Source: Candidatus Limnocylindria bacterium | GTDB taxonomy: Bacteria > Chloroflexota > Limnocylindria > P2-11E | Length of the DNA stretch: 64,000 bases | Direction of reading: 5' to 3' | NCBI GenBank assembly: GCA_038207785.1 | Contig: JBBQZK010000004.1 | Coordinates: 3,095 to 67,094, forward strand | Part shown: piece by piece, positions 30,000 to 63,891 of the stretch | Layout: each line of letters opens with the position of its first letter | Numbering within the stretch: position 1 is the first letter of the stretch | Program-made: the position numbers and the translations under genes | Notes under the pieces: model-generated | Told to the model about the DNA's origin: nothing | Databases searched by the model: none | What the model saw: only the letters and a program-made list of their open reading frames with translations

Positions 30000-30073
<74 letters not shown>

Positions 30074-30116
30074 GCACCCGGAATACGAGTCTCAACTGAG
30101 GTGGTACCGCGGAATG

Positions 30117-30155
30117 GCCTTCCGTCCTCTTCCAGGACGAGGGCCGTTTGATTTT
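30117..30155 (+). terminator. Rho-independent terminator after tRNA-Ala
   Basis: Hairpin GGCCttcCGTCCTcttccAGGACGaggGCC followed by GTTTGATTTT. It lies upstream of the leuS RBS. Confidence 0.5.
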
Positions 30156-36844: not shown

Positions 36845-40294
<3,450 letters not shown>

Positions 40295-40331
40295 CGTTCG
40301 AGTATGCGGCCCGCGCTTGTCTACGCCGTGA

Positions 40332-41222: not shown

Positions 41223-41325
41223 CCGACACCTCCGCTTGCCCGCTTGTCGCGCGGCCAGCCGCGCGCAGCGGACACCTGCGCGTCAAGACCTCGCACGACC
41301 TGTGCCGTGCGACCGACCGATCGCG

Positions 41326-41712
41326 CTACGCGCGCGCGAGCCAGAGGATCCGGCGGAGCGTCGCCGGATCGCCGGGCCAGTGCTCGGCCACGATCTCCGC
41401 CGATGACGAGCGGATCACGAACCGGAGCGCGAACGCCGCGATGATCGCGTCGTCGAGCGCCCCCGCGATGGGCACGAAGTCGGGCACCAGGTCGATGGGG
41501 AAGGCGAGGTACGCCGCCGTGGCCCCGAGCACGATCTTCGCGCGGAGCGGCACGCGCGGATCGCGCAGCAGGCCCGCGAAGAGGCGAGTCAGGTTCGGAA
41601 CGAGGGTCGCGAGCTCGCGCGCGAGCGCGCGCCGGCCGAGGAGCACGAGCGCGAGGACGAGCAGGGTCCAGATGAGGACGATGACCGCGATGACGGTGAG
41701 GACGCGTTCCAC
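41326..41712 (-). CDS. DUF1232 (YkvA-like) membrane protein
   Basis: 128 aa with two TM helices and a conserved PIDLVPDFVPIAGALDD motif. Confidence 0.6.
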   Translation of the reverse strand: MERVLTVIAVIVLIWTLLVLALVLLGRRALARELATLVPNLTRLFAGLLRDPRVPLRAKIVLGATAAYLAFPIDLVPDFVPIAGALDDAIIAAFALRFVIRSSSAEIVAEHWPGDPATLRRILWLARA

Positions 41713-41713
41713 C

Positions 41714-43339
41714 TCAGCCCGCGAGCGCCCGCGCCGCCAGGCTCGTGGGCATCGCCCCGCTCGAGGTCAGCCGGTCGTGGAACTCGCGGAGGGCCGGCAC
41801 GTCTGCCGCACCTCGTTTCGCGAGCCAGCGGGTCCGCAGGTCGACGATCTCGAGCATGCCGGTGAGATATGCCGAGGCCTGCGTCGGCCACGAGCAGTAG
41901 CGGCCGACCTCGGCCCGCGCGTTCGGCAGGCTGAGGTTGCCCTTCTCCACCATGAACGTCACCGCTTCGTCGAACGTCATCTCGCCCATGTGCAGGCTCG
42001 TGTCGACGACGATCCGCGCCGCCCGGAAGATCGTGGCCTCGTACTGGTAGAGCAGGTGCTTCGGATCGGTGAAGAACCCCTGCTCGCGCATGACCCGCTC
42101 GGCGTAGAGGGCCCAGCCTTCCGAGAAGTAGGGCGTGTTGAAGATCTGCCGCAGCTTCGACGGGTTGAAGTGCGCCATCACCAGATGCCAGTGATGTCCG
42201 GGATAGGCCTCGTGCACCGCGGTCGTGGGGATGCCGGCGCTGCAGTTCCCCTCGAGCCGCTTCTGGACCTCCTCCGGAGCGGTGTTGTCAGGGGGGTACG
42301 GCACGAAGAAGTGCCCGGCCAGTGAATCGCTGAACGCCGGCGGGCGGTTGTACGAGGCCACCGCGAGGATCGGGCGCTGGAACGGGGGCGATGGCTCGAC
42401 CGTGCAGCGCTCGCCCGGCGGAAGCGTGACGAGACCGGTGTCGCGCAGGAACGACCGCGCCCGTTCCGTCCACTCCTCATATTCAGCGCGCATGCCGTCG
42501 GGCGTTGGGGCGTGGATCTTGTTCAGCTTCTCGAGGAGGCCGGCCCAGTCCTCGCTGCCGGAGATGTCCTTGGCGATGCGGCGGGCCTCGGCGGCGAGCA
42601 GGTCGTACTGCTCGCGGCCGCGCTCACGGAGCGCGCGGGCGTCGTACGGCAACAGCTCCTTCTCTTTCAGCAGCGCGCTGTACAGCGCTTCGCCGGCCGC
42701 GTAGTCGCCGGTGGCCTTGTCCTTCTTCTCCTGCAGGAACGCGGCGAACGCGTCGAACGCGTCGCCCGCCTCGGAGCCCGCGGCGGCGAGCTTCTCCCGC
42801 GCCTTCGGGTCGCTCACCTCTTGGGGCACGAGATCGCGGGCGTACGTCGCCGCCGCGCGGGCCTGGCCGATCGCGCGATCGACGTAGATCTTCGGAACGA
42901 TCGTGAAGTCAAGGTTGTCGATCCCCTGACGCAGGGCCCGGGGGACCTGGGAGAGGCGAGCCCGAGCGGCGTCGGCGAGGTCGTTCTCCGGACGCAGCTT
43001 GTGCAGGAAGAGCGAGAACACGCCCTGCAGGCCGGGATTCAGATACGTCGCGGGCTGCTTCTGCCACGAGCGCTGCGGGGCATTCAGCTCGCGCCCGCGG
43101 AGGATCGAGCACCCGAAGTCGCGATCGATCCGCTCGGCCGGGGTCAGCTCGTCATCGGGGAGGGCCCGGAAGCGCTTGAGCCACGCGCTCGAGCGCTCCT
43201 CGTGGCGCCGGAAGGCGTCTGCCGAGAGATCATCGAGCCGCTCGTCGTACTCCGTGAGCCCCAGGCTGCTCGCCTGCACGGGTGACTCGGCGAACTCCTC
43301 TTTCAGGAACGTGTCGGTAAGGTCGGCGAACGACGGCAC
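41714..43339 (-). CDS. DUF885-family protein with HExxH-type motif
   Basis: 541 aa with a GTG start preceded by GGGAGG. It carries the conserved DUF885 region ...TAVHEAYPGHHWH.... Confidence 0.7.
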   Translation of the reverse strand: MPSFADLTDTFLKEEFAESPVQASSLGLTEYDERLDDLSADAFRRHEERSSAWLKRFRALPDDELTPAERIDRDFGCSILRGRELNAPQRSWQKQPATYLNPGLQGVFSLFLHKLRPENDLADAARARLSQVPRALRQGIDNLDFTIVPKIYVDRAIGQARAAATYARDLVPQEVSDPKAREKLAAAGSEAGDAFDAFAAFLQEKKDKATGDYAAGEALYSALLKEKELLPYDARALRERGREQYDLLAAEARRIAKDISGSEDWAGLLEKLNKIHAPTPDGMRAEYEEWTERARSFLRDTGLVTLPPGERCTVEPSPPFQRPILAVASYNRPPAFSDSLAGHFFVPYPPDNTAPEEVQKRLEGNCSAGIPTTAVHEAYPGHHWHLVMAHFNPSKLRQIFNTPYFSEGWALYAERVMREQGFFTDPKHLLYQYEATIFRAARIVVDTSLHMGEMTFDEAVTFMVEKGNLSLPNARAEVGRYCSWPTQASAYLTGMLEIVDLRTRWLAKRGAADVPALREFHDRLTSSGAMPTSLAARALAG

Positions 43340-43365
43340 GGCGTCCTCCCCACAATGCGTAGGCC

Positions 43366-45891
43366 GTGAGTCTTACCGAATACCAGCGAAAGCGTGATTT
43401 CAAGAAGACCCCCGAGCCGAAGGGCACGCTGCAGGACGCTCCGCCGAAGCCGCGGTACGTCGTCCACCGGCACCACGCGACCCGGCTCCACTGGGACGTG
43501 CGCCTCGAGATGCGCGGGGTCCTCGCGTCGTTCGCGGTCCCGCAGGGGCCGCCGCTCGTGGCCGGCAAACGGCGACTCGCGGTCCATACCGAGGACCACC
43601 CCATCGAATACCTCACTTTCCACGGCGTCATCCCCGACGGATACGGCGCCGGCAGCATGACGATCTGGGACCAGGGAACGTACGACCTGCTCCTCGAGAA
43701 GCCGTCCAAGGGTAACAAGGGCGGCGAGCTCAAGATCCAGTTCCACGGCACCCGGCTCACCGGCGAGTACGTGATCGTGCAGACCACGGCCCACGAGGGC
43801 CGCGACTGGCTGATGATCATGCACGGCACGCCGCCCAAGGACGATCCGATGCAGGGCCCGATCGCGCCCATGCTCGCGATCACCGCGGACGAGCCGTTCG
43901 ACTCGCCGCAGTTCACGTATGAACCAAAGTGGGACGGCGTGCGCACGATCGCGTTCGTCGACGGCGGCGAGGTGCGGCTGCAGACCCGGAACCTCCTCGA
44001 TTGCACCAAGCAATACCCGGAGGCCCACGGTGCCGCCGAAGCGCTGACCGGCGGCTACCAGGCGATCCTCGATGGGGAAGTCGTCGCCTTCGACGAGAAG
44101 GGCGTGCCGTCATTTCAGCGGCTCCAGCCACGCATGCATCAGCAGGACGAGAGCGCCGTGAGCCGTCTGCGCAAGAGCGTGCCGGTCGTCTACGAGGTCT
44201 TCGATCTCCTCTATCTGGACGGGGAGGACCTCACGCGCCAGCCGCTCCGCGAGCGCCGCCGCCGCCTCGAGGCGGCCCTCGAGCCGATGGGCGCCATCCG
44301 GCTCTCCGAGGGCTTCCCCGGATCGGGCATCGCGCTGTTCAACGCGGCGCGCGACCAGGGGCTCGAGGGCATCGTGGCGAAGCGGCTCGATGCGCCGTAC
44401 GCCAGCGGCCGCTCGGCGGCGTGGGTGAAGATCAAAGCGTTCAAGGCCATGGACTGCGTCATCGGCGGCTGGACCGCGGGCCAGGGCGGCCGCCACTCCA
44501 CGCTCGGCGCGCTGATCGTGGGCATCTACCGCGACGGGAAGCTCATCCCCGTCGGGCATGTCGGGACGGGCTTCGACGATCGGACCCTGCGCGACCTCCT
44601 CGTCACCCTGAAGGAGCACCAGTCGCCAAGCTCGCCATTCGCGCTGGCGCCCAAGGTGAACCAGCCGGCGACCTGGTGCTTCCCGGATCTCGTCTGCGAG
44701 GTCCGTTACGCCGAGATGACGCGCGACGGGACGCTCCGCCACCCGGCGTACCTCGGCCTGCGCTCGGACGTTGACCCGGCGGAGTGCACTGGCCAGGAGA
44801 TTGCCGCGTCGGCGAAAGAGGCGCAGCGGAACGCCGCACGAGCGTCAAAAGAAGTGGAGCGCACACCGGACGTGGTTGCGACGCGCACGGCACGTACGCC
44901 GGCGGTCCTGGAGATCGACGGGCACCAGCTCAAGCTCACGAACCTCGAGAAGGTGCTGTTCCCGGAGGACGGCTACACGAAGGCCGACCTCATCAAGTAC
45001 TACACCCTGGTCTCGCCGTATCTCGTGCCCGTGATCACGGACCGGCCGCTCACGCTGAAGCCGTTCCCCGACGGCATCAGCGGGATGAGCTTCTACCAGA
45101 AGGACAAGCCCGAGTTCACGCCCAAGTGGATCAAGAGCTGGACCGACCGCGCGGCCGACCGCGAAGGCGGCATCGACTACATCCTCGGCAACGACATCGC
45201 GACCATCGTCTGGATGGCCAACTACACGGCGATCGAGATCCATCCGTGGCTTTCGCGCGTCGACAAGCCCGACAACCCCGACATCGCGATCATCGATCTC
45301 GACCCGTCCGCCGGCGCGACGTGGTCCGACGTGAAGGAGACCGCGCTCCTCGTGCGGGGCATCCTGGACGACCTCGATCTGCAGGGATTCCCGAAGACGA
45401 CCGGGTCGCGCGGCATCCACGTGCTCGTCCCGATCGCGCGGCGGTACTCCTTCGACGAGTCGCGCGGGTTCGTCGAGCAGGTCGGCAAGATGGCGCGTGA
45501 GAAGGCGCCGAAGCTCGTGACCCTGACGTTCGCCAAGAAGGAGCGACGGGGGGTGTACGTCGACTACCTGCAGAACGTCCGCGGCAAGACGACCGCCGGC
45601 CCGTACAGCGTGCGCCCGATCCGCCGCGCGCCGGTGAGCGCGCCGCTGCGGTGGGACGAGATCGAGGCCCTCGGCCGGCCGGACGCGTTCACGATCGCCA
45701 ATCTGCCCGCGCGTCTTGCGACGGTGGGGGACCTGCTCGCCCCGGCCCTCGACCTCGCGCAGAAGCTGCCGAAGACGGTGTTCAGGGCCGGCACGCCGGC
45801 GCCGCCGAAGGCCGCGATCGGCAGCGCTGCGCCGAAGCAGCCGGTCGGGAAGAACGCGGTCGTGAAGAAAGCGGTCGCGAAGAAGCATTGA
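43366..45891 (+). CDS. ligD: Multidomain NHEJ DNA ligase LigD (phosphoesterase-ligase-polymerase/primase order)
   Basis: N-terminal 3'-phosphoesterase motif (HRHHATRLHWDVRLE), ligase motif I (EPKWDGVR) and a C-terminal LigD polymerase/primase domain. 841 aa. Confidence 0.9.
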   Translation: MSLTEYQRKRDFKKTPEPKGTLQDAPPKPRYVVHRHHATRLHWDVRLEMRGVLASFAVPQGPPLVAGKRRLAVHTEDHPIEYLTFHGVIPDGYGAGSMTIWDQGTYDLLLEKPSKGNKGGELKIQFHGTRLTGEYVIVQTTAHEGRDWLMIMHGTPPKDDPMQGPIAPMLAITADEPFDSPQFTYEPKWDGVRTIAFVDGGEVRLQTRNLLDCTKQYPEAHGAAEALTGGYQAILDGEVVAFDEKGVPSFQRLQPRMHQQDESAVSRLRKSVPVVYEVFDLLYLDGEDLTRQPLRERRRRLEAALEPMGAIRLSEGFPGSGIALFNAARDQGLEGIVAKRLDAPYASGRSAAWVKIKAFKAMDCVIGGWTAGQGGRHSTLGALIVGIYRDGKLIPVGHVGTGFDDRTLRDLLVTLKEHQSPSSPFALAPKVNQPATWCFPDLVCEVRYAEMTRDGTLRHPAYLGLRSDVDPAECTGQEIAASAKEAQRNAARASKEVERTPDVVATRTARTPAVLEIDGHQLKLTNLEKVLFPEDGYTKADLIKYYTLVSPYLVPVITDRPLTLKPFPDGISGMSFYQKDKPEFTPKWIKSWTDRAADREGGIDYILGNDIATIVWMANYTAIEIHPWLSRVDKPDNPDIAIIDLDPSAGATWSDVKETALLVRGILDDLDLQGFPKTTGSRGIHVLVPIARRYSFDESRGFVEQVGKMAREKAPKLVTLTFAKKERRGVYVDYLQNVRGKTTAGPYSVRPIRRAPVSAPLRWDEIEALGRPDAFTIANLPARLATVGDLLAPALDLAQKLPKTVFRAGTPAPPKAAIGSAAPKQPVGKNAVVKKAVAKKH

Positions 45892-46526: not shown

Positions 46527-46973
46527 CTACCCAGGCGCTTGGTCACCACGCGCGCCGAGCGCGTTCAATTCAGCCTGCCAGAGTGTGATGAACTGCGGGT
46601 CGGTCAGCGGCAGCCGGTTCCCGCGGCGGATCATCGCCACGTACACGATGTCGCGCCCGTCCAGGTGGATCGGGAGCAGGTACCGAATGCCGATGCCCTT
46701 GACCGTGACGAGGCGCGCCTCGACTCCGGGCAGTGGCACGGCGGGCGCGTTTGGGTCGGGGTGCCCGGTCTGCGGGAACTGGCGCAGTTGGCTCAGGCGC
46801 TTGTCGATCGCCGCGAGGACGGACGCAGCGTTCCGCGGGCTGTCGGCCGCGATGTAGGCCAGCAACTCGGTCAGCTCGGCCATCGCGCTGTCGGCGACGA
46901 GGACTCGGTAGCGTGCGGGGACTACCGCCCGGGGAACTGCGCCCGCAGACGAGCGGCGGACGCCTCGTCCCAT
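46527..46973 (-). CDS. Type II toxin, ParE/RelE family
   Basis: ParE-like order: YRVLVADSAMAELTELLAYIAADSPRNAASVLAAIDKRL...VTVKGIGIRYLLPIH...RDIVYVAMIRRGNR. The start is uncertain because it overlaps the antitoxin gene by 40-52 nt. Confidence 0.7.
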   Translation of the reverse strand: MGRGVRRSSAGAVPRAVVPARYRVLVADSAMAELTELLAYIAADSPRNAASVLAAIDKRLSQLRQFPQTGHPDPNAPAVPLPGVEARLVTVKGIGIRYLLPIHLDGRDIVYVAMIRRGNRLPLTDPQFITLWQAELNALGARGDQAPG

Positions 46974-47212
46974 ACGGTCACCCGTCCTTCGGCGAGGTCC
47001 TTGAGACCACGCTGGATCGCGAGCTGCCAGAGCGCGCGCTCGGCCGCGTCTTCCAGCTCCAGGGCGTGGCGGTGCGCTTCCGGTGAGACGAGGTAGGCCA
47101 CGGTCTGGTTGTAGCGGCGCAGCTCCACCGGATGCCGCTTGACCTCGGCGAGGATGTCCGGACCTTTGGACTGCAGCTCGCTGACCTGCCTGATCGCCGC
47201 GTCGTCCGCCAC
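46922..47212 (-). CDS. Type II antitoxin, Phd/YefM family
   Basis: 96 aa (ILAEVKRHPVELRRYNQTVAYLVSPEAH...). It lies upstream of, and overlaps, the toxin gene. Confidence 0.7.
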   Translation of the reverse strand: MADDAAIRQVSELQSKGPDILAEVKRHPVELRRYNQTVAYLVSPEAHRHALELEDAAERALWQLAIQRGLKDLAEGRVTVWDEASAARLRAQFPGR

Positions 47213-54410: not shown

Positions 54411-55511
54411 TTAGGGCTGGACGGTCAGCGGGTTCACGAAGCGGCCTGCGATCCGGGTCTCCCAGTGGACGTGGGGACCCGTGGTCACGCCGCTGAGCCC
54501 GATCGCGCCGATCACCTGCCCGACGGTCACCTCTGTGCCGACGGGATAGAGCGCGGCGCTCATGTGGTAGAAGCACTCATCGAGATTGCCGCTCTTCACG
54601 CAGATGTGCAGGCCGCCGACGGCGACCCAGCCGTTCTCGCTGATCACGCCATTGAGGCCGGATGCGAGGCCGCTGCCAAAAGGCGCGGCGATGTCCACGC
54701 CGGTGTGTCCGGCCCACATGTACTGGCTGAGGTAGCCCGCGACCGGCCAGGCGAGGTATCCGGCGGCGCCCGCTGTCGGCGCGGTCCCGGAGGGGCGCGT
54801 GATAACGCTTGCCGCGGCCGCGGCCGCCGCGCTCGCCGCCGCCGCCGGCGGCGGCAGGCTCGGGAGCGTCGCGTTGGGGACGAAGATGGACTGGCCCGGA
54901 GCGAAGTTGCTCTCCTCGAAGTAGAGGCGGTTGTACGTCTTGATCTCGCCCGCGTCCACCTTGAAGCGGGCCGCGACGGAGTCGACGGTGTCACCGTTCG
55001 CGACCGTGTAGAGCGCGCCCTGGCTCGGCGGGATCACGATGCGGCGCCCGAGGTCCAGGTGATAGGGGTCGGTGATCCCGTTGGCGAACGCGATGGTCTC
55101 GGCCGAGAGGCCGTAGTAGTTCGCGATCGTCCAGAGCGTGTCGCTCGCCGAGAGCGTGTACTCGCTCGTCGCGGGCGCCGCCTGAGACTGCACCGTGAGC
55201 GGATTGCGTGCGGCACTGATGGTGGTGCCTCGAGCCTGCGGCGCCGCACGACTGAGCAAGGGGCCGCCCTCCACCGGCGCGAGGCTGGTCGATCCGGTCG
55301 GCGCGCTGAACTGCGATGCCTGTGTCGGTCGCGCGGCGGCGCTCGCCATGAACGGGAGGGCCATCACGATCGTCGCGACCATGAGATTCACGACGACGAA
55401 CAGGGCGCGCCGGCCGAGCTGCCGGGAGCTGATCGTTGAGAGGCGCTCGATCGTGTCGCCGGCCGCGCGGACGAGCACCCCGAAGGGCATCGTGATCCGT
55501 CCCGCCGTCAT
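54411..55511 (-). CDS. LysM-domain M23-family peptidase
   Basis: Start at MTAGR (residue 54) or MPFGV. A TM anchor is followed by two LysM repeats (YTLSASDTLWTIANYYG, YTVANGDTVDSVAARF) and a C-terminal LytM catalytic domain (HTGVDIAAPFGS...GPHVHWE). Confidence 0.8.
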   Translation of the reverse strand: MTAGRITMPFGVLVRAAGDTIERLSTISSRQLGRRALFVVVNLMVATIVMALPFMASAAARPTQASQFSAPTGSTSLAPVEGGPLLSRAAPQARGTTISAARNPLTVQSQAAPATSEYTLSASDTLWTIANYYGLSAETIAFANGITDPYHLDLGRRIVIPPSQGALYTVANGDTVDSVAARFKVDAGEIKTYNRLYFEESNFAPGQSIFVPNATLPSLPPPAAAASAAAAAAASVITRPSGTAPTAGAAGYLAWPVAGYLSQYMWAGHTGVDIAAPFGSGLASGLNGVISENGWVAVGGLHICVKSGNLDECFYHMSAALYPVGTEVTVGQVIGAIGLSGVTTGPHVHWETRIAGRFVNPLTVQP

Positions 55512-55792
55512 GACCGTCGGCCGCTTGAGCGTCGCCCTCAATACCTGACCCTCCCCGCGTACGCGAATGCCGCTGTGCGCGCCGGCGTTGATGGCACCGG
55601 ATCCCAATGAAAGGCGTGTACGCATTGCGTACTCGTCGATCGGGGATGGTCGCACCGTACCAAGGCACATCGCGATGTGTCAACCGCGCAACGGGGGGGT
55701 GTCGTTATGGCAACTGGGACTTTTGGGTAGGCGTGCCCCGCCGAATGGGCGCGGTTTGCGGCGATCTGAGGGCGTTCGTACGCTACGACCGC

Positions 55793-56158
55793 ATGCCCGA
55801 CTACAACCTGTCGTATTTCTATGTCTTCGCGTTCTTCATCGTCGGCGCGGGCTTCGTCACCGTATTGCTCGGCATCTCACGTCTTGTCGCTCCGCGGAAA
55901 CCGTCCCTCGAGAAGTCCCGGACGTACGAATCCGGCGAAGAGCCGGTCGGCCAAGCATGGGGCCGATACCCCAGCCACTTCTACATCTTCGCGCTGCTCT
56001 TCGTCGTCTTCGACGTCGAGGTGATCTTCCTGTTCCCGTGGGCGGTGCTGTTCAGATCGCTCGGCTGGAACGGCCTCATCGAGATGTTCGTGTTCATCCT
56101 CATCCTCGTGGTCGGCCTCTTCTACGCGTGGCGCAAACAGGTCCTGCGGTGGTACTGA
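55793..56158 (+). CDS. nuoA: NADH-quinone oxidoreductase subunit A
   Basis: 121 aa ([22 protein letters not shown]...[34 protein letters not shown]). ATG is at residue 63 of listed ORF 55607. Confidence 0.85.
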
Positions 56159-56163
56159 CCCCG

Positions 56164-56637
56164 GTGCGGCCGAGTCCGGAGCTCGCGCGCCTCGCGTCGT
56201 CGCTTCGCGCGAAGCTCGGGGAGCGCGCCCGCGTCTCGACCCTGCACGACATGATCGTCATCGACGTCGATCGAGATCGGCTCGTGGAGGTCGCGACCCT
56301 CGTGCGCGACGACGAGCTGACGAAGTGCGATCTCTATTCGACGAATGCCGGGGTCGACACGGGCGCGGAGCTGCGGTCGGTCACGTTCGTGCGCGGCACG
56401 ACGACGCACGCGTTCGTGATGCTGCGCAGCATGTGCCCGGAGATGGACCCGCGGATCCCCACGCTCTCGACCGTGTGGCCCGGTGCGAACTGGTGCGAGC
56501 GTGAGACGTACGACATGTTCGGCATCACCTTCGATGGCCATCCCGATCTGCGGCGCATTTTCCTCGAAGAGTCGTTCCCCGGACACCCGCTGCGGAAGAG
56601 CTTCCTGCCACCGCGCAGCGACGCGCGCGGAGGCTGA
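56164..56637 (+). CDS. nuoC: NADH-quinone oxidoreductase subunit C (30-kDa subunit, short form)
   Basis: GTG 5 nt after the nuoA stop. NuoC signature [41 protein letters not shown]. No nuoB ORF lies between nuoA and nuoC. Confidence 0.75.
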
Positions 56638-56640
56638 GCG

Positions 56641-57792
56641 ATGCCCGTCGGACCGTTCGGGATCGATCCGGTCGTCTGGGCCGTGCTGCGCCTCGTCATC
56701 GCGGTCGGCCTGGCCGTCTTCCTCGTCCTCAACGGGGCCCTCGCGCAGATCTTCCTCGAGCGCAAGATCCAGGCGGTCATGCAGGACCGCGTCGGCCCGT
56801 ACCACACGGGGCCGTTCGGACTCCTGCAAACGTTTGCCGACGCCATCAAATTGCTCGCAAAAGAGGACATCCGCGCGAAGCTGACGGACGCGCCGTTCTT
56901 TCTCGCGGCGCCGGCCATCGTCTTCAGCCCGATGCTCGCTTCGTTCGTGGTGCTGCCGTTCGGGCCCGACTTCGTCGGCGCGAACCTCAACGTCGGCCTC
57001 CTCTATCTGACGACGCTCGGCTCGATGACGGTGCTGGGCATCGTGATCGCGGGGTGGGCCTCGAACAACAAGTACTCGCTCATGGGTGGCCTTCGTTCGG
57101 CAGGCCAGCTCATCTCCTATGAGGTGCCGCAGATCCTCGCCCTGGTCACCGTGGTCCTCTACGTGGGGTCGCTATCGATGGTCGACATCACCAATTCGCA
57201 GCCCGGCGCGCTCGTGAACGTGCTCATCCTGCCGATGGCGTTCGTGACGTACCTCATCGCCGCTCTCGCCGAGACCAACCGCAACCCCTTCGACCTCCCC
57301 GAGGCGGAGTCCGAGCTGGTCGCCGGGTTCCTCACCGAGTACTCCGGCATGCGCTGGGGCATCTTCTTCCTCGCCGAGTACGGCGAGGTCACGGTCGTCT
57401 CGGCGATCATGGCCACGCTCTGGTTCGGCGGATGGCATGGCCCCGGCGTCGACGCGATCCCGATCCTCGGGGTCCTCTGGTTCACCCTCAAGACATATGG
57501 GTTCGTGGTCCTGTTCATGTGGATCCGCGCGACGCTGCCGCGCCTCCGCATCGATCAGCTCATGGGCTTCTGCTGGAAGGTGCTCATCCCGCTCGCGCTG
57601 GTCAACATCATGGCATCGGCTGTGATCATCCTGGCCTTCGCCGATCCGCGTCTCCCGCTCGCCGTCGTCAACTGGCTGCTCGTCGGCCTGCTGGTCATCG
57701 GCCTGCCGTTCACGCAGCGCCGCCGGCTGCTGCGGTTCCGGTCGCGAACGCGCGAGAACGTCGCCATGCGCGACGTGCGTCTCTCGCCGTAG
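56641..57792 (+). CDS. nuoH: NADH-quinone oxidoreductase subunit H
   Basis: 383 aa with 8 TM helices and ND1 motifs (RVGPYHTGPFGLLQTFADAIKLL, EYSGMRWGIFFLAEY). Confidence 0.9.
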   Translation: MPVGPFGIDPVVWAVLRLVIAVGLAVFLVLNGALAQIFLERKIQAVMQDRVGPYHTGPFGLLQTFADAIKLLAKEDIRAKLTDAPFFLAAPAIVFSPMLASFVVLPFGPDFVGANLNVGLLYLTTLGSMTVLGIVIAGWASNNKYSLMGGLRSAGQLISYEVPQILALVTVVLYVGSLSMVDITNSQPGALVNVLILPMAFVTYLIAALAETNRNPFDLPEAESELVAGFLTEYSGMRWGIFFLAEYGEVTVVSAIMATLWFGGWHGPGVDAIPILGVLWFTLKTYGFVVLFMWIRATLPRLRIDQLMGFCWKVLIPLALVNIMASAVIILAFADPRLPLAVVNWLLVGLLVIGLPFTQRRRLLRFRSRTRENVAMRDVRLSP

Positions 57793-57794
57793 TC

Positions 57795-58292
57795 GTGGAC
57801 TTCCTCGAGCCCGTCTTTTTCGCGCTGTTCGCCCTGGGGATCATCGGGGCGGGTCTGTGCGTCGTCGTGCTGCGCCGGATCACGGCGCAGGCCTTGCTCA
57901 TGGCCCTGACGTTCGCGTGCATGGCCGGCATGTTCCTGCTGCTCGGCGCGGAGACGATCGCGCTCTTCCAGGTGCTCATCTACGTCGGTGCGATCACGAT
58001 CCTCATCCTGTTCGGTGTGATGTTCACCAAGCAGGAGGAGCGCGCCTACGGGCTCTTCTTCCAGGAGCAGACCCGCTGGGCCGCTGCGTTCGTCCTGCTC
58101 ATCGGCCTGCCGGTCGCATACCTCGCGTTGTCATTCGCGGATCCGCTCACGCCATCGGCGAAAGGCGGCGACCTCATCCCGCTCGCGGCGAGCCTGTTCA
58201 CCGACTACGCCTTTCCCTTCGAGGTCGCGTCGGTCCTCCTGCTCGCGGCGCTGGTCGGCGCGATCGTCCTCGTGAAGCGGGACGAGCAGTGA
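57795..58292 (+). CDS. nuoJ: NADH-quinone oxidoreductase subunit J
   Basis: GTG 3 nt after the nuoH stop. It is ND6-like with a pi-bulge helix region (FLLLGAETIALFQVLIYVGAITILILFGVM). No nuoI lies between nuoH and nuoJ. Confidence 0.85.
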   Translation: MDFLEPVFFALFALGIIGAGLCVVVLRRITAQALLMALTFACMAGMFLLLGAETIALFQVLIYVGAITILILFGVMFTKQEERAYGLFFQEQTRWAAAFVLLIGLPVAYLALSFADPLTPSAKGGDLIPLAASLFTDYAFPFEVASVLLLAALVGAIVLVKRDEQ

Positions 58293-58618
58293 CCGTCCCG
58301 CTCGGCGCGTTCATCGCCGTCTCGGCGGCGCTGTTCTTCATCGGGACCGCGGGCGTCCTCGTGCGCCGGAACGCTGTCGTCATCCTCATGTGCGTCGAGC
58401 TCATGCTGAACGCGAGCAACCTCGCGCTCGTCGCCTTCTCCCGGCGGGCCGGGCAGCTCGGCGCGGGCAATCCACTGGATCAGCGCGGCAGCGTCTTCGT
58501 GGTGTTCGTCTTCGTCATTGCCGCGGCCGAGGTCGCGGTCGGACTCGCGATCATCCTCGCGTCGTATCGCAATCGCCCGACCGTGAACGTCGATGATCTC
58601 CACGAGATGAAGGGATGA
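58289..58618 (+). CDS. nuoK: NADH-quinone oxidoreductase subunit K
   Basis: 109 aa, ND4L-like (VLMCVELMLNASNLALVAF). GTGA overlap with nuoJ. Confidence 0.85.
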   Translation: MTVPLGAFIAVSAALFFIGTAGVLVRRNAVVILMCVELMLNASNLALVAFSRRAGQLGAGNPLDQRGSVFVVFVFVIAAAEVAVGLAIILASYRNRPTVNVDDLHEMKG

Positions 58619-60534
58619 TCCAGAACGTCTGGCTGATCCCGGCCTTCCCGCTGGCGGCGTTCCTCGTGAACGCGCTGTTCGGGAGGCGCTGGCTCGGCCG
58701 GTGGACCGGCCCGCTCGCCTCCGCCGCGATCGCGGCGTCCGCGCTCATGTCGATCGCGGTGTTCCTGGAGGTACGCGCGGGAGCCGAGCGAACGATCGTC
58801 CCGCTCTACACGTTCATCAGCGTCGGCGACTTCCACGTCGACGTCGCGGCGCAGGTCGACCCGCTGTCGTCGGCCATGCTTCTGGTGGTCACGATCGTGT
58901 CGCTCCTCGTCCACGTGTATTCGATCGGCTACATGGCCCACGACCACGGGTTCTGGCGGTTCTTCACGTGGCTGCCGCTCTTCGTGTTCGCGATGCTCAT
59001 CCTCGTCCTCGGCGACAACTACCTCGTCATGTTCGTCGGGTGGGAGGGCGTCGGAGTCTGCAGCTACCTGCTCATCGGCTTCTGGTTCGAGCGCCCCGAG
59101 CCGGCCGGCGCCGCGAAGAAGGCCTTCGTGATGAACCGGATCGGGGACTGGGGCTTCATGATCGGCATGATCACGACGTTCCTCGTCTTCGGCTCGATGA
59201 ATTTCGTCGACGTCTTCGAGCGCGTCGCGAAGGATCCGCCCGCGCAGGGGGTCCTGGCGCTCATCGGCCTCGCGTTCTTCCTCGGCGCGACCGGCAAGTC
59301 GGCCCAGCTCCCGCTGTACTCGTGGCTCCCCGACGCGATGGAGGGTCCGACCCCCGTGTCCGCCCTCATCCATGCGGCGACCATGGTGACCGCCGGCGTG
59401 TACCTCGTCGCACGGTCGACGCCGTTGTTCGCGGCCGCCGGCCCCGTGCTCGCCGTCGTCGGCGCAGTCGGTGCGCTCACCGCGATCTTCGCCGCGACCA
59501 TCGCGCTCGTCCAGTTCGACATCAAGCGGGTCATGGCGTACTCGACGGTGTCGCAGCTCGGATACATGTTCCTGGCCCTCGGCGTGGGCGCGCCGATCGC
59601 CGCCATGTTCCACCTCATCACGCACGCGTTCTTCAAGGCGCTGCTCTTCCTTGGCTCGGGCTCCGTCATCCACGGCGTCGGCAACGTGCAGGACATGCGT
59701 CAGATGGGCGGCCTCCGATCGAAGATGCCGCTGACGTACTGGACGATGGTCATCGCGGGCGGCGCGCTCGCGGCGCTGCCGCCGCTCGCCGGGTTCTGGT
59801 CGAAGGACGAGATCCTCGGCTCGGCGTTCAAGAACGGGTACCCGATCCTCTGGGTCGTCGGCGTCTTCACCGGCGGGCTGACGGCCTTCTACGTGACCCG
59901 CGCGATCTGGCTCACCTTTCACGGCCAGCCACGCGACCGTCACCTGTTCGAGCATGCGCACGAGTCGCCGCGGGTCATGACCGTGCCGCTCCTGGCGCTG
60001 GCCGCGGGAAGCGTGCTGGTCGGCTTCATCGGCTTCCCCCCGGACAACGGCCTGATCCACGCGTTCCTCGGCCCGGTCGTCGAGTCCGCGAAGGACGACC
60101 AGATCCGGCCGATCCTCGCGGGTACGAACTGGGCCGAGTTCCTCCTGCTCGCGGCGATCTCGACGGCCGTCGGCATCGGCGGGATCCTCATCGGCCTGTC
60201 CATGTACTCGCGCGGCCGGCCCGAACCGGCTGCGGTATCGCGCGCCGCCGGCCCGTACTACGACGTGCTCGTGAACAAGTACTACGTCGACGAGCTGTAC
60301 GACCGCCGGCTCGTCGATGTGGGGAAGGCGTTCGCCGGCGCGGCGTGGGCCTTCGACATCCACATCATCGACGGCCTCGTGAACCGGCTGGGCTGGGCCA
60401 TCAAGCTCGGCGGCGGCGGCCTGCGCCGTGCGCAGACGGGCGTCGTCGGGAACTACGCCCTCTCGATCGTCGCCGGCCTGCTCGTGATCATGGTCGTGTA
60501 CGGCGGCTACGCGACGGGCTGGCTGCACCGCTGA
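58615..60534 (+). CDS. nuoL: NADH-quinone oxidoreductase subunit L
   Basis: 639 aa antiporter-like subunit with a long C-terminal horizontal helix. ND5 motifs are present (GWEGVGVCSYLLIGFWF, SALIHAATMVTAGVYLV). Confidence 0.9.
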   Translation: MIQNVWLIPAFPLAAFLVNALFGRRWLGRWTGPLASAAIAASALMSIAVFLEVRAGAERTIVPLYTFISVGDFHVDVAAQVDPLSSAMLLVVTIVSLLVHVYSIGYMAHDHGFWRFFTWLPLFVFAMLILVLGDNYLVMFVGWEGVGVCSYLLIGFWFERPEPAGAAKKAFVMNRIGDWGFMIGMITTFLVFGSMNFVDVFERVAKDPPAQGVLALIGLAFFLGATGKSAQLPLYSWLPDAMEGPTPVSALIHAATMVTAGVYLVARSTPLFAAAGPVLAVVGAVGALTAIFAATIALVQFDIKRVMAYSTVSQLGYMFLALGVGAPIAAMFHLITHAFFKALLFLGSGSVIHGVGNVQDMRQMGGLRSKMPLTYWTMVIAGGALAALPPLAGFWSKDEILGSAFKNGYPILWVVGVFTGGLTAFYVTRAIWLTFHGQPRDRHLFEHAHESPRVMTVPLLALAAGSVLVGFIGFPPDNGLIHAFLGPVVESAKDDQIRPILAGTNWAEFLLLAAISTAVGIGGILIGLSMYSRGRPEPAAVSRAAGPYYDVLVNKYYVDELYDRRLVDVGKAFAGAAWAFDIHIIDGLVNRLGWAIKLGGGGLRRAQTGVVGNYALSIVAGLLVIMVVYGGYATGWLHR

Positions 60535-62054
60535 TGGACACGCTCCTGACCCTGCTCATCGTCATCCCGATCGCCGGGATCGTCCCGCTCATCGTGTTCT
60601 TCCGCGATCAGCGTGCGGTGAAGCAGGTCGCGGTCGTCACCACGTTCATCGAGCTCCTCGTGTCACTCGTGATGCTCGCGCAGTTCCACGTCGGCGAGGC
60701 CGGGTTCCAGATGACCGAGTCGCACGCCTGGCTGCCGAGCTTCGGCATCCGCTACGAGCTCGGCGTGGATGGCATCTCCGTGCTGCTCATCCCGATGACG
60801 ACGCTGCTCACGTTCATCTCGGTGCTGTATTCGACCGGCGGGGCCATCAAGCAGCGCATCGGCGAATTCATGATCGTGTTCCTGCTCCTCGAGGTCGGCA
60901 TGGTCGGTGTGTTCATGGCCCTCGATCTGTTCCTGTTCTACGTGTTCTTCGAGCTGATGCTCGTGCCGATGTATCTGATCATCGGCATCTGGGGCGGCCC
61001 GCGGCGGGTGTACGCGACGCTCAAGTTCGTCCTCTTCACGCTCGCCGGGTCGCTCCTCATGCTCGTTGGCATCATCGCCGTGTATCTGCAGAGCGGCCCT
61101 CCGGGCAACCGCACCCTTTCGCTGCCCGACCTCCTCGACCGGTCCGGGCGCTTTCCACCGGAGTTCCAGTTCTGGGTCTTCCTCGCGTTCGCGCTCGCGT
61201 TCGCGATCAAGATGCCGATGGTCCCCTTCCACACCTGGCTGCCGGACGCCCATGTGGAGGCCCCGACGGCGGGTTCGATCGTGCTCGCGGGTGTGCTGCT
61301 GAAGGCCGGCGGGTACGGCTTCCTGCGCTTCGCGGTGCCGCTGTTCCCCGTCGGGACGCAGGCCTGGCTGCCGATCCTCATCCTGTTGTCGGTCGTCGCG
61401 ATCCTGTACGGGGCGATCGTCTCGGTCGTCCAGAAGGACCTGAAGAAGCTCGTGGCGTATTCATCGGTGGCCCACATGGGGTTCGTCACGCTCGGCATCT
61501 TCGTGCTCAACCAGCAGGGCGGCGTCGGCGCCGTGCTGCAGATGCTCAACCACGGCTTCGTCACGGGCGCGCTATTCCTCTTCGTCGGCATCCAGTACGA
61601 AAAGACCCATCGCCGCCAGATCGCGGACCTCGGTGGCCTCGCGAACACCTGGCCGTTGTTCACCGCGTTCTTCGGTGTCTTCACGCTCGCTTCGCTCGGG
61701 CTGCCCGGGCTCAGCGGCTTCGTCGGCGAGTTCCTCGTCCTGCTCGGCACGTTCAAGTTCAACCCGCCCGGCGGACCGGGCGGTCTGTTCTGGGGACCGC
61801 TCGCGGCGATCGGTGTGATCCTCGCCGCGGTCTACCTGCTCTGGATGTTCCAGCGCGTGATGTACGGCACGCTGCGCGAGGCCTACCGGGCCTTGCCTGA
61901 CCTCTCGCCGATCGAGGTCGTCTGCGCCGTGCCGCTGCTCCTGCTCACCGTCCTGCTCGGCGTCTTCCCGCAGCCGGCCATCGCGATCATCGAGCCGTCG
62001 GTGCAGCGTATCCTGGCCATCGCGGCCGGAGCGTCGCAGGTCGTCCTCAAGTGA
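60534..62054 (+). CDS. nuoM: NADH-quinone oxidoreductase subunit M
   Basis: ATG at 60534 overlaps the nuoL stop. 506 aa, ND4-like (HTWLPDAHVEAPTAGSIVLAGVLLK). Listed ORF 58701..62054 has an artefactual 5' extension. Confidence 0.9.
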   Translation: MDTLLTLLIVIPIAGIVPLIVFFRDQRAVKQVAVVTTFIELLVSLVMLAQFHVGEAGFQMTESHAWLPSFGIRYELGVDGISVLLIPMTTLLTFISVLYSTGGAIKQRIGEFMIVFLLLEVGMVGVFMALDLFLFYVFFELMLVPMYLIIGIWGGPRRVYATLKFVLFTLAGSLLMLVGIIAVYLQSGPPGNRTLSLPDLLDRSGRFPPEFQFWVFLAFALAFAIKMPMVPFHTWLPDAHVEAPTAGSIVLAGVLLKAGGYGFLRFAVPLFPVGTQAWLPILILLSVVAILYGAIVSVVQKDLKKLVAYSSVAHMGFVTLGIFVLNQQGGVGAVLQMLNHGFVTGALFLFVGIQYEKTHRRQIADLGGLANTWPLFTAFFGVFTLASLGLPGLSGFVGEFLVLLGTFKFNPPGGPGGLFWGPLAAIGVILAAVYLLWMFQRVMYGTLREAYRALPDLSPIEVVCAVPLLLLTVLLGVFPQPAIAIIEPSVQRILAIAAGASQVVLK

Positions 62055-63502
62055 CCATCGCCGACGTCGTGGCCGTCCTGCCAGAGGTCGCGGTGACCAC
62101 GACGGCGCTGCTCGTGCTCCTTGCGGATGCGGTCGTCGGCCGCAGGGCTGCCCGCACGTGGCTCCCTGTCCTCACGATCCTCGGCCTCGTCGTGGCGATC
62201 TTCGCGGGCCCGCGCACGGTCGCGAGCCACACGGCGTTCGGCGGCTTCGTCGTCATCGATACGTTCGCGACGTTCTTCCGGATCCTCTTCTGCATCCTCG
62301 CGATCTTCGCGACCGTGGTCGCGCCCGAGTACCTCGAGCGCCGCGCGATCCCGGCCGCCGAGTTCTACGCCACCGTGCTGTTCTCGACCGTCGGCGCGAT
62401 GACGATCGCCCTCTCGTCCGACCTCATCACGGTGTTCGTCGGCCTCGAGCTCATGACCATCCCGATCTACGTGCTCGCGGCCATGGCGCGTCGCGATCGC
62501 TACAGCAATGAGGCGGGGCTCAAGTACTTCCTGCTCGGCGCGTTCAGCTCCGCGATGCTGCTGTACGGCTTCGCCTGGCTCTACGGGCTCTCGGGCACGA
62601 CCACCTTCGCGGGCATCGCCAAGGCCATCAGCGCGGGCGGACTGACCAACGGTCCGACCCTCGTCGCGCTCGCGCTCGTGACGGTGGGGCTCGCGTTCAA
62701 GGCCGCGGTGGTGCCGTTCCATCAATGGACGCCCGATGCGTACGACGGCGCGCCGACGCCGGCCACCGCGTTCATGAGCGTGGCGCCCAAGGCCGCGGCC
62801 TTCGCCGCGATCCTCCGGATCATGCTCGGCACGCTCGGGCCGCTCGCGCTCGATTGGAGCGCGGTGTTCGCGGTGCTCGCCGCCATCACGATGACCGGCG
62901 GCAATGTCGTGGCGCTCGTGCAGGGGAACGTGAAGCGGATGCTGGCGTACTCGAGCATCGCGCACACCGGCTACATCCTCGCCGGCGTCGCCGCATATCA
63001 GGCCGGTACGTCGGCCTCCGCCGCGGTCCTCTTCTACGTGTTCGCGTACGGCGTCATGAATCTCGGCGCCTTCGCGTGCCTCATCTACCTCGACCTCGAG
63101 GGGACGCGCGGCGCGACGCTCGACGAGCTGAACGGCTTCGCCCGCCGGCAGCCGATCGGCGCCGTGGCCTTCGCGGTGTTCCTCATCTCGCTCACCGGGA
63201 TCCCGCCGACGATCGGCTTCGTCGCCAAGGTGTTCATCCTGCAGCCCGTCCTCGACGCGGGCCTCGTGTGGCTCGCGGTCGTGATCGCCCTGAACGCCGT
63301 CCTCGCGGCGTTCTATTACCTCCGGGTCGTGGTCCACATGTACATGTACGACGTCGATGCGAACGCGCCCCGGCTGCTGCACCCCAACCTGCTGTCCGCG
63401 GGCCTCGGCATCGCGGGGATCGCCGTCGTCTTCCTCGGGATCGTTCCCGACTTCCTGTACCGCTGGGCCCTGCAGGCCGCCGCGCCCTTCGTCCTCCGCT
63501 AG
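62051..63502 (+). CDS. nuoN: NADH-quinone oxidoreductase subunit N
   Basis: 483 aa, ND2-like (HQWTPDAYDGAPTPATAFMSVAPKAAAFA). GTGA overlap with nuoM. Confidence 0.9.
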   Translation: MTIADVVAVLPEVAVTTTALLVLLADAVVGRRAARTWLPVLTILGLVVAIFAGPRTVASHTAFGGFVVIDTFATFFRILFCILAIFATVVAPEYLERRAIPAAEFYATVLFSTVGAMTIALSSDLITVFVGLELMTIPIYVLAAMARRDRYSNEAGLKYFLLGAFSSAMLLYGFAWLYGLSGTTTFAGIAKAISAGGLTNGPTLVALALVTVGLAFKAAVVPFHQWTPDAYDGAPTPATAFMSVAPKAAAFAAILRIMLGTLGPLALDWSAVFAVLAAITMTGGNVVALVQGNVKRMLAYSSIAHTGYILAGVAAYQAGTSASAAVLFYVFAYGVMNLGAFACLIYLDLEGTRGATLDELNGFARRQPIGAVAFAVFLISLTGIPPTIGFVAKVFILQPVLDAGLVWLAVVIALNAVLAAFYYLRVVVHMYMYDVDANAPRLLHPNLLSAGLGIAGIAVVFLGIVPDFLYRWALQAAAPFVLR

Positions 63503-63510
63503 CCCCAGGA

Positions 63511-63891
63511 CTAGCCCCGGGACGGGAGCAGCCGCTCGCCGACCAGACCACCGATCGCGCCCAGTCCCGCGGCGATCGCCAGCGGCACGAGGATGGCGGG
63601 GAGCTCGAGCACGAGCAGGCTCCCGAAGCGTGACACCGGCTCGAAGGCCGGCGTGAACGCCTGGTGCATCTGGGTCGCGAGGATGCTGCCGAGGAACAGC
63701 GAGAACAACAGTGCGCACGGCGCCGCGACGGCGCCGAGGCGTCCGGCGATGACCCCCGCGCAGAGCAGGATCCCGACGCTGACGCCGAGGAGGATCACCG
63801 GCGGGACCGCCAGCGGCTCGGTGAGTCCCCACCAGAACGCGAGACCGATCGTCGTGGCGAGGACCGAGGCGAGCGTCCGGGCCATCGTCAT
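63511..63891 (-). CDS. Hypothetical small integral membrane protein (126 aa, 4 TM)
   Basis: Hydrophobic ORF convergent with nuoN. Its start overlaps (ATGA) the stop of a further upstream membrane-protein gene. Confidence 0.5.
   Translation of the reverse strand: MTMARTLASVLATTIGLAFWWGLTEPLAVPPVILLGVSVGILLCAGVIAGRLGAVAAPCALLFSLFLGSILATQMHQAFTPAFEPVSRFGSLLVLELPAILVPLAIAAGLGAIGGLVGERLLPSRG

Follow-up and report, generated by a model that had tools for sequence, protein, structure and literature searches.

A cluster of eight consecutive genes on the forward strand, in the order nuoA-C-H-J-K-L-M-N, occupies positions 55793-63502 of the window, the 64-kb stretch of DNA that was analyzed, which comes from Limnocylindria, a class of uncultured soil Chloroflexota. 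The genes were identified with Pfam and NCBIfam models. The cluster and the divergent gene that precedes it are composed as follows.

54411..55607, minus strand, LysM/Peptidase_M23 gene; the window ORF translation was aligned in position with the genes of relatives
55793..56158, plus strand, nuoA, 121 aa, first gene of the cluster; Pfam PF00507, E = 6.9e-38
56149 (or 56164)..56637, plus strand, nuoC; Pfam PF00329, E = 7.5e-35
56641..57792, plus strand, nuoH, 383 aa; Pfam PF00146, E = 4.8e-114
57795..58292, plus strand, nuoJ, 165 aa, GTG start; Pfam PF00499, E = 4e-32
58289..58618, plus strand, nuoK, 109 aa; Pfam PF00420 and NCBIfam NF004320
58615..60534, plus strand, nuoL, 639 aa; NCBIfam NF005141 and TIGR01974
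60534..62054, plus strand, nuoM, 506 aa; TIGR01972
62051..63502, plus strand, nuoN, 483 aa, last gene of the cluster; TIGR01770

Genes with LysM and Peptidase_M23 domains are also found upstream of nuoA in three related contigs (L001, L002 and L005); the divergent gene delimits the cluster on its 5' side and lies outside the complex. As read from the sequence, nuoC and nuoH are separated by 3 nt and nuoH and nuoJ by 2 nt, where the initial annotation had counted 3. The remaining junctions are overlaps, GTGA at J/K, ATGA at K/L, TGATG (1 nt) at L/M and GTGA at M/N, as first described. The nuoC gene encodes 162 aa from a GTG at 56149 or 157 aa from a GTG at 56164, and the 5-nt gap previously reported between nuoA and nuoC depends on the latter. 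The true start is probably the GTG at 56149, within nuoA, because most of the listed NuoC homologues are 162 aa long and because in L001 and L343 nuoC is called with a 10-nt overlap into nuoA. The cluster is a single translationally coupled operon, and both the family assignments and the junctions bear out the original description of eight tightly coupled nuo genes.

All eight proteins match Pfam families of complex I, with PF00361 (found three times) and PF00662 among them. The curated NCBIfam/TIGRFAM complex I cut-offs are exceeded by NuoH (NF004741, 351.8 bits, cut-off 305), NuoK (NF004320, 109 bits, cut-off 57), NuoL (NF005141, 736.9 bits, cut-off 556; TIGR01974, 722 bits), NuoM (TIGR01972, 587.7 bits, cut-off 263.8) and NuoN (TIGR01770, 427.5 bits, cut-off 332.6). 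NuoA and NuoJ exceed the Pfam cut-offs only and do not reach those of NCBIfam, and NuoC scores below both the NCBIfam equivalog cut-off and that of TIGR01961. The best PDB match of NuoH is the E. coli NuoH (262 bits). Among solved structures NuoC is closest to the M. smegmatis NuoC in 8e9g, followed by chain J of 6hum (E = 3e-22). NuoC is the cofactor-free 30-kDa scaffold subunit of the Q module, NuoH, in the membrane, builds the quinone entry and the E-channel and is the docking point of the Q module, and NuoL, NuoM and NuoN are the antiporter-like subunits, NuoL with a long C-terminal extension. The membrane core is represented in full by its seven subunits (NuoA, H, J, K, L, M and N), so the earlier reading of the locus as a complete membrane arm plus a short NuoC is upheld. 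By their family scores the window proteins classify as canonical complex I subunits.

Functional residues were checked in a MAFFT alignment with the E. coli, Tsukamurella and Bacillus thuringiensis subunits, using E. coli numbering. The 13 charged NuoH residues that line the quinone cavity and the E-channel, including the TM5-6 loop facing the quinone chamber, are all retained (E36, R37, D63, E71, R148, E157, R209, D213, E216, E218, E220, E228 and R293), and the loop itself, NPFDLPEAESELVAGF, aligns with HPFDQPEAEQELADGY of E. coli. The proton-channel set of the antiporter-like subunits (TM5 Glu, TM7 Lys, TM8 His/Lys and TM12 Lys/Glu) is present, with E144, D178, K229, H254, H334, H338, K342, K399 and D400 in NuoL, E144, K234, K265 and E407 in NuoM, and E133, K217, K247 and K395 in NuoN. 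NuoK retains E36 and E72, NuoA D79 and E81, and NuoJ Y59. Only NuoL D563 and NuoJ E80 differ among the positions queried, and neither is conserved in the references. Judged from the alignment, the membrane subunits retain every residue needed for coupling to a quinone-reducing Q module.

The same gene order was found in L001, L002-4, L005/6 and L343/344, and the eight-gene cluster recurs in every related contig inspected; these contigs are labeled Candidatus Limnocylindria or Chloroflexota, and their source assemblies (JGI, ENA, Logan and NCBI) are independent of one another. Gene order and start/stop overlaps recur, at 73-95% protein identity, in six or more independent sets of contigs that differ in sample and assembler. 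The NuoA protein is 95% identical to its L001 orthologue. The 120 relatives of NuoC among the matches listed form one graded series (70-94% identity), and their loci show the context of the window wherever inspected. The dN/dS ratios relative to L001 are 0.05-0.24 across the eight genes, with nuoC the least constrained (0.24) and the other seven at 0.05-0.14. By these ratios all eight genes, nuoC included, are under purifying selection.

None of nuoB, nuoD, nuoE, nuoF, nuoG and nuoI was found in the cluster or in the rest of the 64-kb window. The minimal enzyme has 11 core subunits; NuoE, NuoF and NuoG make up the N module of the 14-subunit form that oxidizes NADH. A tblastn search of the 64 kb with the Tsukamurella NuoB, D, E, F, G and I and the Bacillus thuringiensis NuoB, D and I gave no convincing match, the best (E = 0.002 over 57 residues) falling within an unrelated gene, and the 40 further candidate ORFs of the window that were submitted to Pfam showed no nuo-related domain. 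No space is left for a hidden gene, as had been argued from the gene spacing. The initial annotation had further noted the absence of every subunit with an Fe-S cluster, the NADH site or the quinone site; this holds for the locus only, and not demonstrably for the genome. Genes of the Q module, which comprises NuoB with cluster N2, NuoD with the quinone site and NuoI with two 4Fe-4S clusters, were likewise missing from the 55 kb upstream of the cluster in the window and from the flanks of the related contigs, including about 3 kb downstream, and in the related contigs inspected no candidate for an alternative electron-input module was conserved beside the cluster. Several targeted searches retrieved no nuoB, nuoD or nuoI on contigs tied to Limnocylindria, and none of 120 randomly returned high-GC metagenome stretches bearing nuoD could be assigned to the class. 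The sole genome contig labeled Limnocylindrales with a nuoD (L057) is of acidobacterial type and probably mis-binned.

A 2026 genome survey of the Limnocylindria reported complex I gene sets in all four families, and its Supplementary Note 1 lists 'complete gene sets', with Complex I as NuoA-NuoN, for P2-11E, QHBO01, CSP1-4 and Limnocylindraceae (PMC13212565). The statement gives neither copy number nor location. The pooled KO lists for CSP1-4 in the same survey contain K00331 (nuoB), K00333 (nuoD) and K00335 (nuoF) in addition to the eight genes of the window and lack K00334 (nuoE), K00336 (nuoG) and K00338 (nuoI), which contradicts the 'complete' statement; the lists pool many MAGs, and contamination is possible (PMC13212565).

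Canonical complex I, as encoded by E. coli nuoA-N, Thermus thermophilus nqo1-14 and Mycobacterium smegmatis nuoA-N, comprises the same eight subunit families and shares with the window the residues for proton pumping and the quinone chamber and the order H-J-K-L-M-N of the membrane block; identity between the window subunits and their Bacillus and Tsukamurella counterparts is 34-55%. The window operon differs in lacking nuoB, D, E, F, G and I, in placing nuoC between nuoA and nuoH, and in its short NuoC (162 aa). In cyanobacteria and plastids the NDH-1 genes are scattered (ndhC-K-J, ndhA-I-G-E, ndhH, ndhB and ndhD/F in Synechocystis and plastid genomes), and their NdhJ, the counterpart of NuoC and chain J of 6hum, is about 160-170 aa long. 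The enzyme resembles the one proposed here in being of complex I type and spread over several loci, with a short NuoC counterpart. In cyanobacteria, however, ndhJ stands with the nuoA and nuoB counterparts and the membrane-arm genes are scattered, whereas in the window the whole membrane arm forms one operon and nuoB is gone. The scores do not suggest a cyanobacterial-type Ndh, the Ndh models (for example NF005626, NF009212, NF002701 and NF009141) falling below both the Nuo models and their own cut-offs; no Ndh-specific genes were seen in the 64-kb window. Mrp antiporters and membrane-bound hydrogenases (Mbh, Hyf and Ech) also have antiporter-like (PF00361), NuoH-like and NuoC-like subunits, but in the window NuoA, NuoJ and NuoK are all present in their complex I form, and the complex I models give scores two to ten times those of the Mrp or hydrogenase models, and far above those of the Fpo models; NuoL, for example, reaches 737 bits with NF005141 against at most 290 with MrpA and at most 258 with HyfD/B models. 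An Mrp-type antiporter was rejected, as NuoH, NuoA and NuoJ are present, the MrpB, E, F and G families are missing and the Mrp models score far below Nuo.

In soil lineages elsewhere, splits of the nuo operon along module lines are common. The loci L337-L341, L251 and L234, from uncultured soil bacteria labeled 'Armatimonadota bacterium', 'bacterium' or 'Anaerolineales bacterium', carry a free-standing nuoB-D-I-C operon that has no membrane subunit within 10 kb. The boundary between Q module and membrane arm is the same as in the window, but nuoC accompanies nuoB, D and I in those loci and the membrane arm here. The loci come from another lineage, with a tetranucleotide correlation to the window of 0.84-0.88 versus 0.93-0.94 for true relatives and a NuoC only 35% identical. 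Acidobacteriota carry operons of the order nuoA-C-D-E-F-G-H-J-K-L-M(-N) (L057, L069, L071, L076, L079, L087 and L088), in which nuoC follows nuoA without nuoB and nuoJ directly follows nuoH without nuoI, two junctions shared with the window; between nuoC and nuoH the operons retain nuoD, E, F and G, which the window lacks. Five of these loci (L069, L071, L076, L079 and L087) show the A-C-D-E-F-G-H-J-K-L-M form without nuoB and nuoI, and others (L067, L078 and L084) a full 11-subunit-type operon. The acidobacterial NuoL and NuoM are among the best matches outside the Limnocylindria (45-49% identity). Their NuoH is only 37% identical, so common descent of the arrangement is not established. Further split forms were A-C-D-H-I-J-K-L-M-N without nuoB, A-B-C-D alone, and lone nuoD genes.

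The cluster most likely represents an ordinary enzyme with an uncommon gene arrangement and not a new machine. The initial annotation had offered two alternatives, a peripheral arm encoded at a second locus and a stripped-down module recruiting another electron input; the former is favored and the latter gained no positive support. With a probability of roughly 0.8, this is an ordinary complex I whose membrane arm and NuoC are encoded here and whose NuoB, NuoD and NuoI-type subunits are encoded at other loci of the same genome. A Q module at a second locus is favored because the coupling residues are kept and nuoC is under purifying selection, because K00331 and K00333 are reported for CSP1-4 (PMC13212565), and because module-wise splits are common elsewhere. 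The locus would supply the full proton-pumping arm (NuoA, H, J, K, L, M and N) and the scaffold NuoC; NuoB, NuoD and a NuoI-type ferredoxin subunit, expected to sit on NuoH, would come from one or more other loci, and a NuoF-containing input module may also be encoded elsewhere. Electrons would pass through the Fe-S clusters of NuoI and NuoB to quinone at the NuoD/NuoB/NuoH interface, and the E-channel of NuoH/A/J/K would carry the resulting charge changes on to the Lys/Glu chain of NuoN, M and L, which would pump protons. We infer both the presence of the partners in this genome and their assembly with the subunits of the cluster; we know of no role for NuoC apart from NuoD and NuoB.

The cluster could instead be an extra, partial paralogous set forming an isoenzyme, with NuoB, D and I lent by a complete 11- or 14-gene nuo operon elsewhere. 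Acidobacteriota genomes show operon types both with and without nuoB and nuoI, where comparable sharing might occur, and the silence of the 'complete' NuoA-N statement on number and place of copies would accommodate this (PMC13212565). It is nevertheless unlikely, given the single graded series and constant context of the 120 listed NuoC relatives and the lack of a second Limnocylindria-like nuoA/H/L/M/N set among 200 nuoD-anchored loci; one would expect a spare set to be patchier and under weaker constraint than the dN/dS of 0.05-0.14 in seven of the eight genes. The recurrence of the cluster in independent JGI, ENA, Logan and NCBI assemblies dismisses an assembly artefact. A chimeric contig or an assembly deletion that removed nuoB, D and I might be suspected in metagenome-derived sequences, one Limnocylindrales-labeled MAG contig (L057) being evidently mis-binned, but order and junctions are identical across the independent contig sets and the junctions are in-frame coupled overlaps, so that such an error is extremely improbable.

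More radical departures from complex I would be a pump without canonical NuoB, D and I, fed by a group-4 hydrogenase-like or other input module or translocating cations or protons independently of redox chemistry. The failure to find Q-module genes around the cluster or a nuoB/D/I locus in the lineage fits such a pump, as do the nuoI, nuoE and nuoG KOs missing from the CSP1-4 lists (PMC13212565) and the occurrence of NuoC-like subunits in membrane-bound hydrogenases, PDB 6cfw chain K being a weak match to the window NuoC. The intact quinone-chamber and E-channel residues of NuoH would be pointless without a NuoB/NuoD-type partner, and as far as is known all homologues of NuoH (Ech, Hyc, Mbh, Mbx, Fpo and NDH-1) work with homologues of NuoB and NuoD. 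With no alternative module conserved beside the cluster in the contigs inspected, and with K00331 and K00333 reported for CSP1-4 genomes (PMC13212565), a pump of this kind is highly unlikely. Only slightly less doubtful is a lineage that lacks canonical NuoI and NuoE/G, and possibly standard NuoB/D, and uses a separately encoded non-canonical redox head with NuoC as adaptor.

If the ordinary, split complex I is the correct reading, its relevance is mainly for annotation: pipelines that score complex I by operon completeness or by nuoF alone would mis-score this abundant soil class. Only a non-canonical Q module would give the finding much greater weight; with a non-canonical redox head, this would be a complex-I-like respiratory enzyme of a new kind, in an uncultured soil lineage that ranks among the most abundant. 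On the split reading, the layout would be a clean example of complex I genes partitioned along module boundaries and would agree with the view of a modular evolution of the enzyme (Moparthi and Hagerhall 2011, PMC3144371; Spero et al. 2015, PMC4453560). An odd detail is that nuoC is kept with the membrane arm, away from nuoB and nuoD, a hint that assembly may require NuoC stoichiometrically or co-translationally with NuoH/NuoA.

The nuo cluster of the window (G+C content about 69%) consists of eight genes, each assigned to a Pfam family.

Genes of the nuo cluster (coordinates, strand, gene, Pfam family)
55793-56158, +, nuoA, Oxidored_q4
56149/56164-56637, +, nuoC, Complex1_30kDa
56641-57792, +, nuoH, NADHdh
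57795-58292, +, nuoJ, Oxidored_q3
58289-58618, +, nuoK, Oxidored_q2
58615-60534, +, nuoL, Proton_antipo_N/M/C
60534-62054, +, nuoM, Proton_antipo_M
62051-63502, +, nuoN, Proton_antipo_M

NuoH, NuoK, NuoL, NuoM and NuoN exceed the cut-offs of the curated NCBIfam complex I models and score much higher on these than on the Mrp, Hyf/Hyc and Fpo models; NuoA, NuoC and NuoJ pass the Pfam cut-offs but not the NCBIfam ones. An Mrp-type or hydrogenase-type identity of the cluster was rejected from the family scores. Read from the sequence, the junctions are tight (a 3-nt gap at C/H, GTGA overlaps at J/K and M/N, an ATGA overlap at K/L and TGATG at L/M), in line with the initial annotation, except that the H/J gap is 2 nt and not 3. 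The start of nuoC is probably the GTG at 56149 and not position 56164, because most of the listed NuoC homologues are 162 aa long and nuoC, as called on related contigs, runs 10 nt into nuoA. No promoter or terminator signal above chance came out of scans around the cluster, and an exact-sequence look-up of the window NuoH in an assembly index returned no record.

The cluster had been described as lacking nuoB/D/I and nuoE/F/G, and this stands by Pfam annotation and by tblastn against the whole window. The tblastn queries came from two plasmids, one of Tsukamurella (all 14 Nuo proteins) and one of Bacillus thuringiensis (its 10 Nuo proteins); NuoA/C/H/J/K/L/M/N were recovered, and no credible match to NuoB/D/E/F/G/I was obtained anywhere in the 64 kb. 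Pfam annotation of 40 further candidate ORFs of the window found no nuo-related domain. The annotated ORFs are housekeeping genes, among them a sensor kinase, a ParE toxin, Ku and LigD, ABC and MFS transporters, smpB, ftsEX, mreD-PBP2-rodA, gyrB, gyrA with an intein, parB, holA, leuS, comEA/EC, transaldolase and pyrG. Four more ORFs correspond by position and length to the aldehyde dehydrogenase, rsfS, nadD and obg of the related contig L001.

The reading preferred here, with a probability of about 0.8, is that of an ordinary complex I with its genes split between loci: the cluster would supply the whole membrane arm plus NuoC, with nuoB and nuoD, and probably also a divergent nuoI and some input module, encoded elsewhere. 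In every related contig inspected, a divergent LysM/M23 peptidase gene precedes the genes in the order A-C-H-J-K-L-M-N; these contigs are the 229-kb JGI contig L001, three JGI soil contigs (L002-L004), one NCBI and one ENA contig (L005 and L006), and an NCBI MAG named Candidatus Limnocylindria bacterium together with a Logan contig (L343 and L344). None of them carries nuo genes in the 3 kb 3' of the cluster. The tetranucleotide signatures of the related loci correlate with that of the window at 0.93-0.94. Among the matches listed, the nearest relatives of the window NuoC share 70-94% identity with it, and the named ones are 'Candidatus Limnocylindria bacterium' or 'Chloroflexota bacterium'. 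The eight-gene layout is a lineage trait and not an artefact; an origin of the cluster in faulty assembly is hardly credible.

Aligned with the counterparts from E. coli, Tsukamurella and Bacillus, the window NuoL, NuoM and NuoN retain the catalytic residues that were checked, save NuoL D563, which differs in both references too. NuoK E36/E72, NuoA D79/E81 and NuoJ Y59 are kept, as are 13 of the 13 conserved charged residues checked in NuoH, including those of the TM1-2 and TM5-6 loops, which build the quinone chamber together with NuoB and NuoD. Against the L001 orthologues, dN/dS is 0.24 for nuoC and ranges from 0.05 to 0.14 among the seven membrane genes. Judged from these comparisons, the window Nuo proteins appear to be in full working order and made for coupling with a Q module (NuoB/C/D/I). 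In complex I structures NuoC is a cofactor-free scaffold bound to NuoD and NuoB; purifying selection on nuoC therefore suggests a NuoD-type partner, its retention being otherwise hard to explain. That the cluster, with no nuoB, nuoD or nuoI beside it and a NuoH intact at the quinone chamber, is a pump with a non-canonical head is considered very unlikely.

A 2026 comparative genomics study of 236 genomes from the families P2-11E, QHBO01, CSP1-4 and Limnocylindraceae describes Limnocylindria families with complete NuoA-NuoN sets in its Supplementary Note 1 (PMC13212565). The source data of its Fig. 2a,b pool KO identifiers over CSP1-4 genomes by habitat, and the freshwater and sediment lists both hold K00330-K00333, K00335, K00337 and K00339-K00343, corresponding to nuoA/B/C/D, nuoF, nuoH and nuoJ/K/L/M/N (PMC13212565). 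K00334 (nuoE), K00336 (nuoG) and K00338 (nuoI) are missing from both, so that the complete sets of the text stand against the study's own pooled CSP1-4 lists (PMC13212565). Since these lists contain K00331 and K00333, nuoB and nuoD are reported in the class, outside the cluster (PMC13212565). No description of the gene order of the Limnocylindria nuo cluster was found in the searchable literature. A rival reading, in which the cluster is an additional, partial paralogue and a complete operon elsewhere lends it a Q module, appears unlikely. The second nuo locus of Limnocylindria that the split reading predicts was not seen directly in genome, metagenome or representative searches.

Genome contigs were scanned with a two-sequence NuoD alignment, and among the 80 loci returned a single one was labelled Limnocylindrales (L057; DATJWH010000029.1, 'Candidatus Limnocylindrales bacterium SMAG_U15094'). 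This 281-kb MAG contig of 60% GC carries an acidobacterial-type A-C-D-EF-G operon, its NuoD relatives (85-89% identity) are named Acidoferrales, Verrucomicrobiae and Cybelea, and a protein identical to its NuoD sits on a 3.1-Mb contig. It was rejected as the Limnocylindria nuoD locus by GC, operon type and NuoD relatives, and is probably mis-binned or mislabelled. To scan metagenome contigs, the NuoD motif GPQHPSTHGV was written as a high-GC codon pattern, and gene orders were mapped in the 120 stretches returned; no Limnocylindria locus was found among their nuoD candidates without nuoC upstream. The tetranucleotide correlation of the nuoD candidates with the window is 0.91 or less, a measure that separated true relatives (0.93-0.94) from all else and is no proof of absence. 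Rejected candidates were a lone nuoD beside a WhiB gene (cluster named Actinomycetota), the nuoB-D-I(-C) loci (placed in another lineage by their labels and tetranucleotide signature), and the metagenome loci L299 and L311, of borderline signature (clusters named Deltaproteobacteria and Polarisedimenticolia). The more distant NuoD protein matches P0373, P0375, P0383 and P0387 lie in canonical or other contexts. Among 50%-identity representatives the best match to a NuoD query was only 52% identical, and the NuoD clusters are too broad to inform.

The nuoD-anchored loci show that soil bacteria frequently have the nuo operon split at module boundaries. An Acidobacteriota operon of the order A-C-D-E-F-G-H-J-K-L-M(-N), without nuoB and nuoI, has the A-C and H-J junctions found in the window (L057, L069, L071, L076, L079, L087 and L088); in L057, NuoE and NuoF are fused in one 604-aa protein. 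Other Acidobacteriota loci hold an 11-subunit-type operon with nuoI, plus nuoB where the upstream part is visible, and subunits may be shared between the two operon types. One further lineage has A-C-D-H-I-J-K-L-M-N without nuoB, another A-B-C-D alone, and in Planctomycetes nuoI has moved upstream or nuoD stands alone. In an uncultured lineage from soil, with the labels Armatimonadota, 'bacterium' or Anaerolineales, nuoB-nuoD-nuoI-nuoC form an operon of their own (L337-L341, L251 and L234), mostly directly 3' of a Rieske gene or of suf genes for Fe-S assembly and with no membrane-arm gene within 10 kb; the 'Armatimonadota'-labelled family thus keeps the whole Q module apart from any membrane subunit. 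An isolated nuoD with no other nuo gene nearby occurs in a high-GC lineage (L273, L230 and L214; 90% cluster named Actinomycetota), and in L273 it adjoins proS and lies about 4 kb from a WhiB gene, with about 750 codons of open frame upstream of nuoD. The window subunits are roughly equidistant from the other split-operon lineages, at about 29-58% identity. Scattered complex I genes are a known phenomenon, to which an abundant uncultured class adds a new example; the retention of nuoC with the membrane arm is a mildly unusual twist.

The window contains further features. The gyrA gene (15716-19975, -; 1419 aa) has, by Pfam, an intein in its N-terminal part with Intein_splicing and LAGLIDADG_3 (LAGLIDADG homing-endonuclease) domains; it is closely followed on its strand by gyrB and parB. 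ARAGORN calls a tRNA-Ser(GCT) of 95 nt (11623-11717, -) that shares sequence with the end of one gene, for an MFS transporter, and with the start of another, smpB; the call may be false, because Rfam at the gathering threshold does not report it. A T-box leader match (29816-30132, +) directly upstream of leuS (30174-32639) scores 94.1 bits in Rfam against a gathering score of 93. The match spans a predicted tRNA-Ala(GGC) at 30000-30073, and is either a riboswitch with an odd insert or a score inflated by the tRNA. A non-homologous end-joining set occupies 39218-45891.

Non-homologous end-joining genes (coordinates, strand, Pfam-based product)
39218-40294, -, second ATP-dependent ligase
40332-41222, -, Ku
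43366-45891, +, full LigD with phosphoesterase, ligase and primase-polymerase domains

A ParE-family toxin gene and a small upstream ORF lie at 46527-47212 (-); the small ORF (46922-47212) has no Pfam match and is presumably the antitoxin. All relatives inspected share with the window a conserved feature directly 3' of nuoN: one small gene, or two, of no Pfam family, encoded on the strand opposite to nuoN with products of about 120-136 aa (window 63511-63891, -; L001 17983-18737; L002 10361-11112). The window product looks hydrophobic, and in L001 an inserted TMEM175-type channel gene separates the small genes from nuoN.
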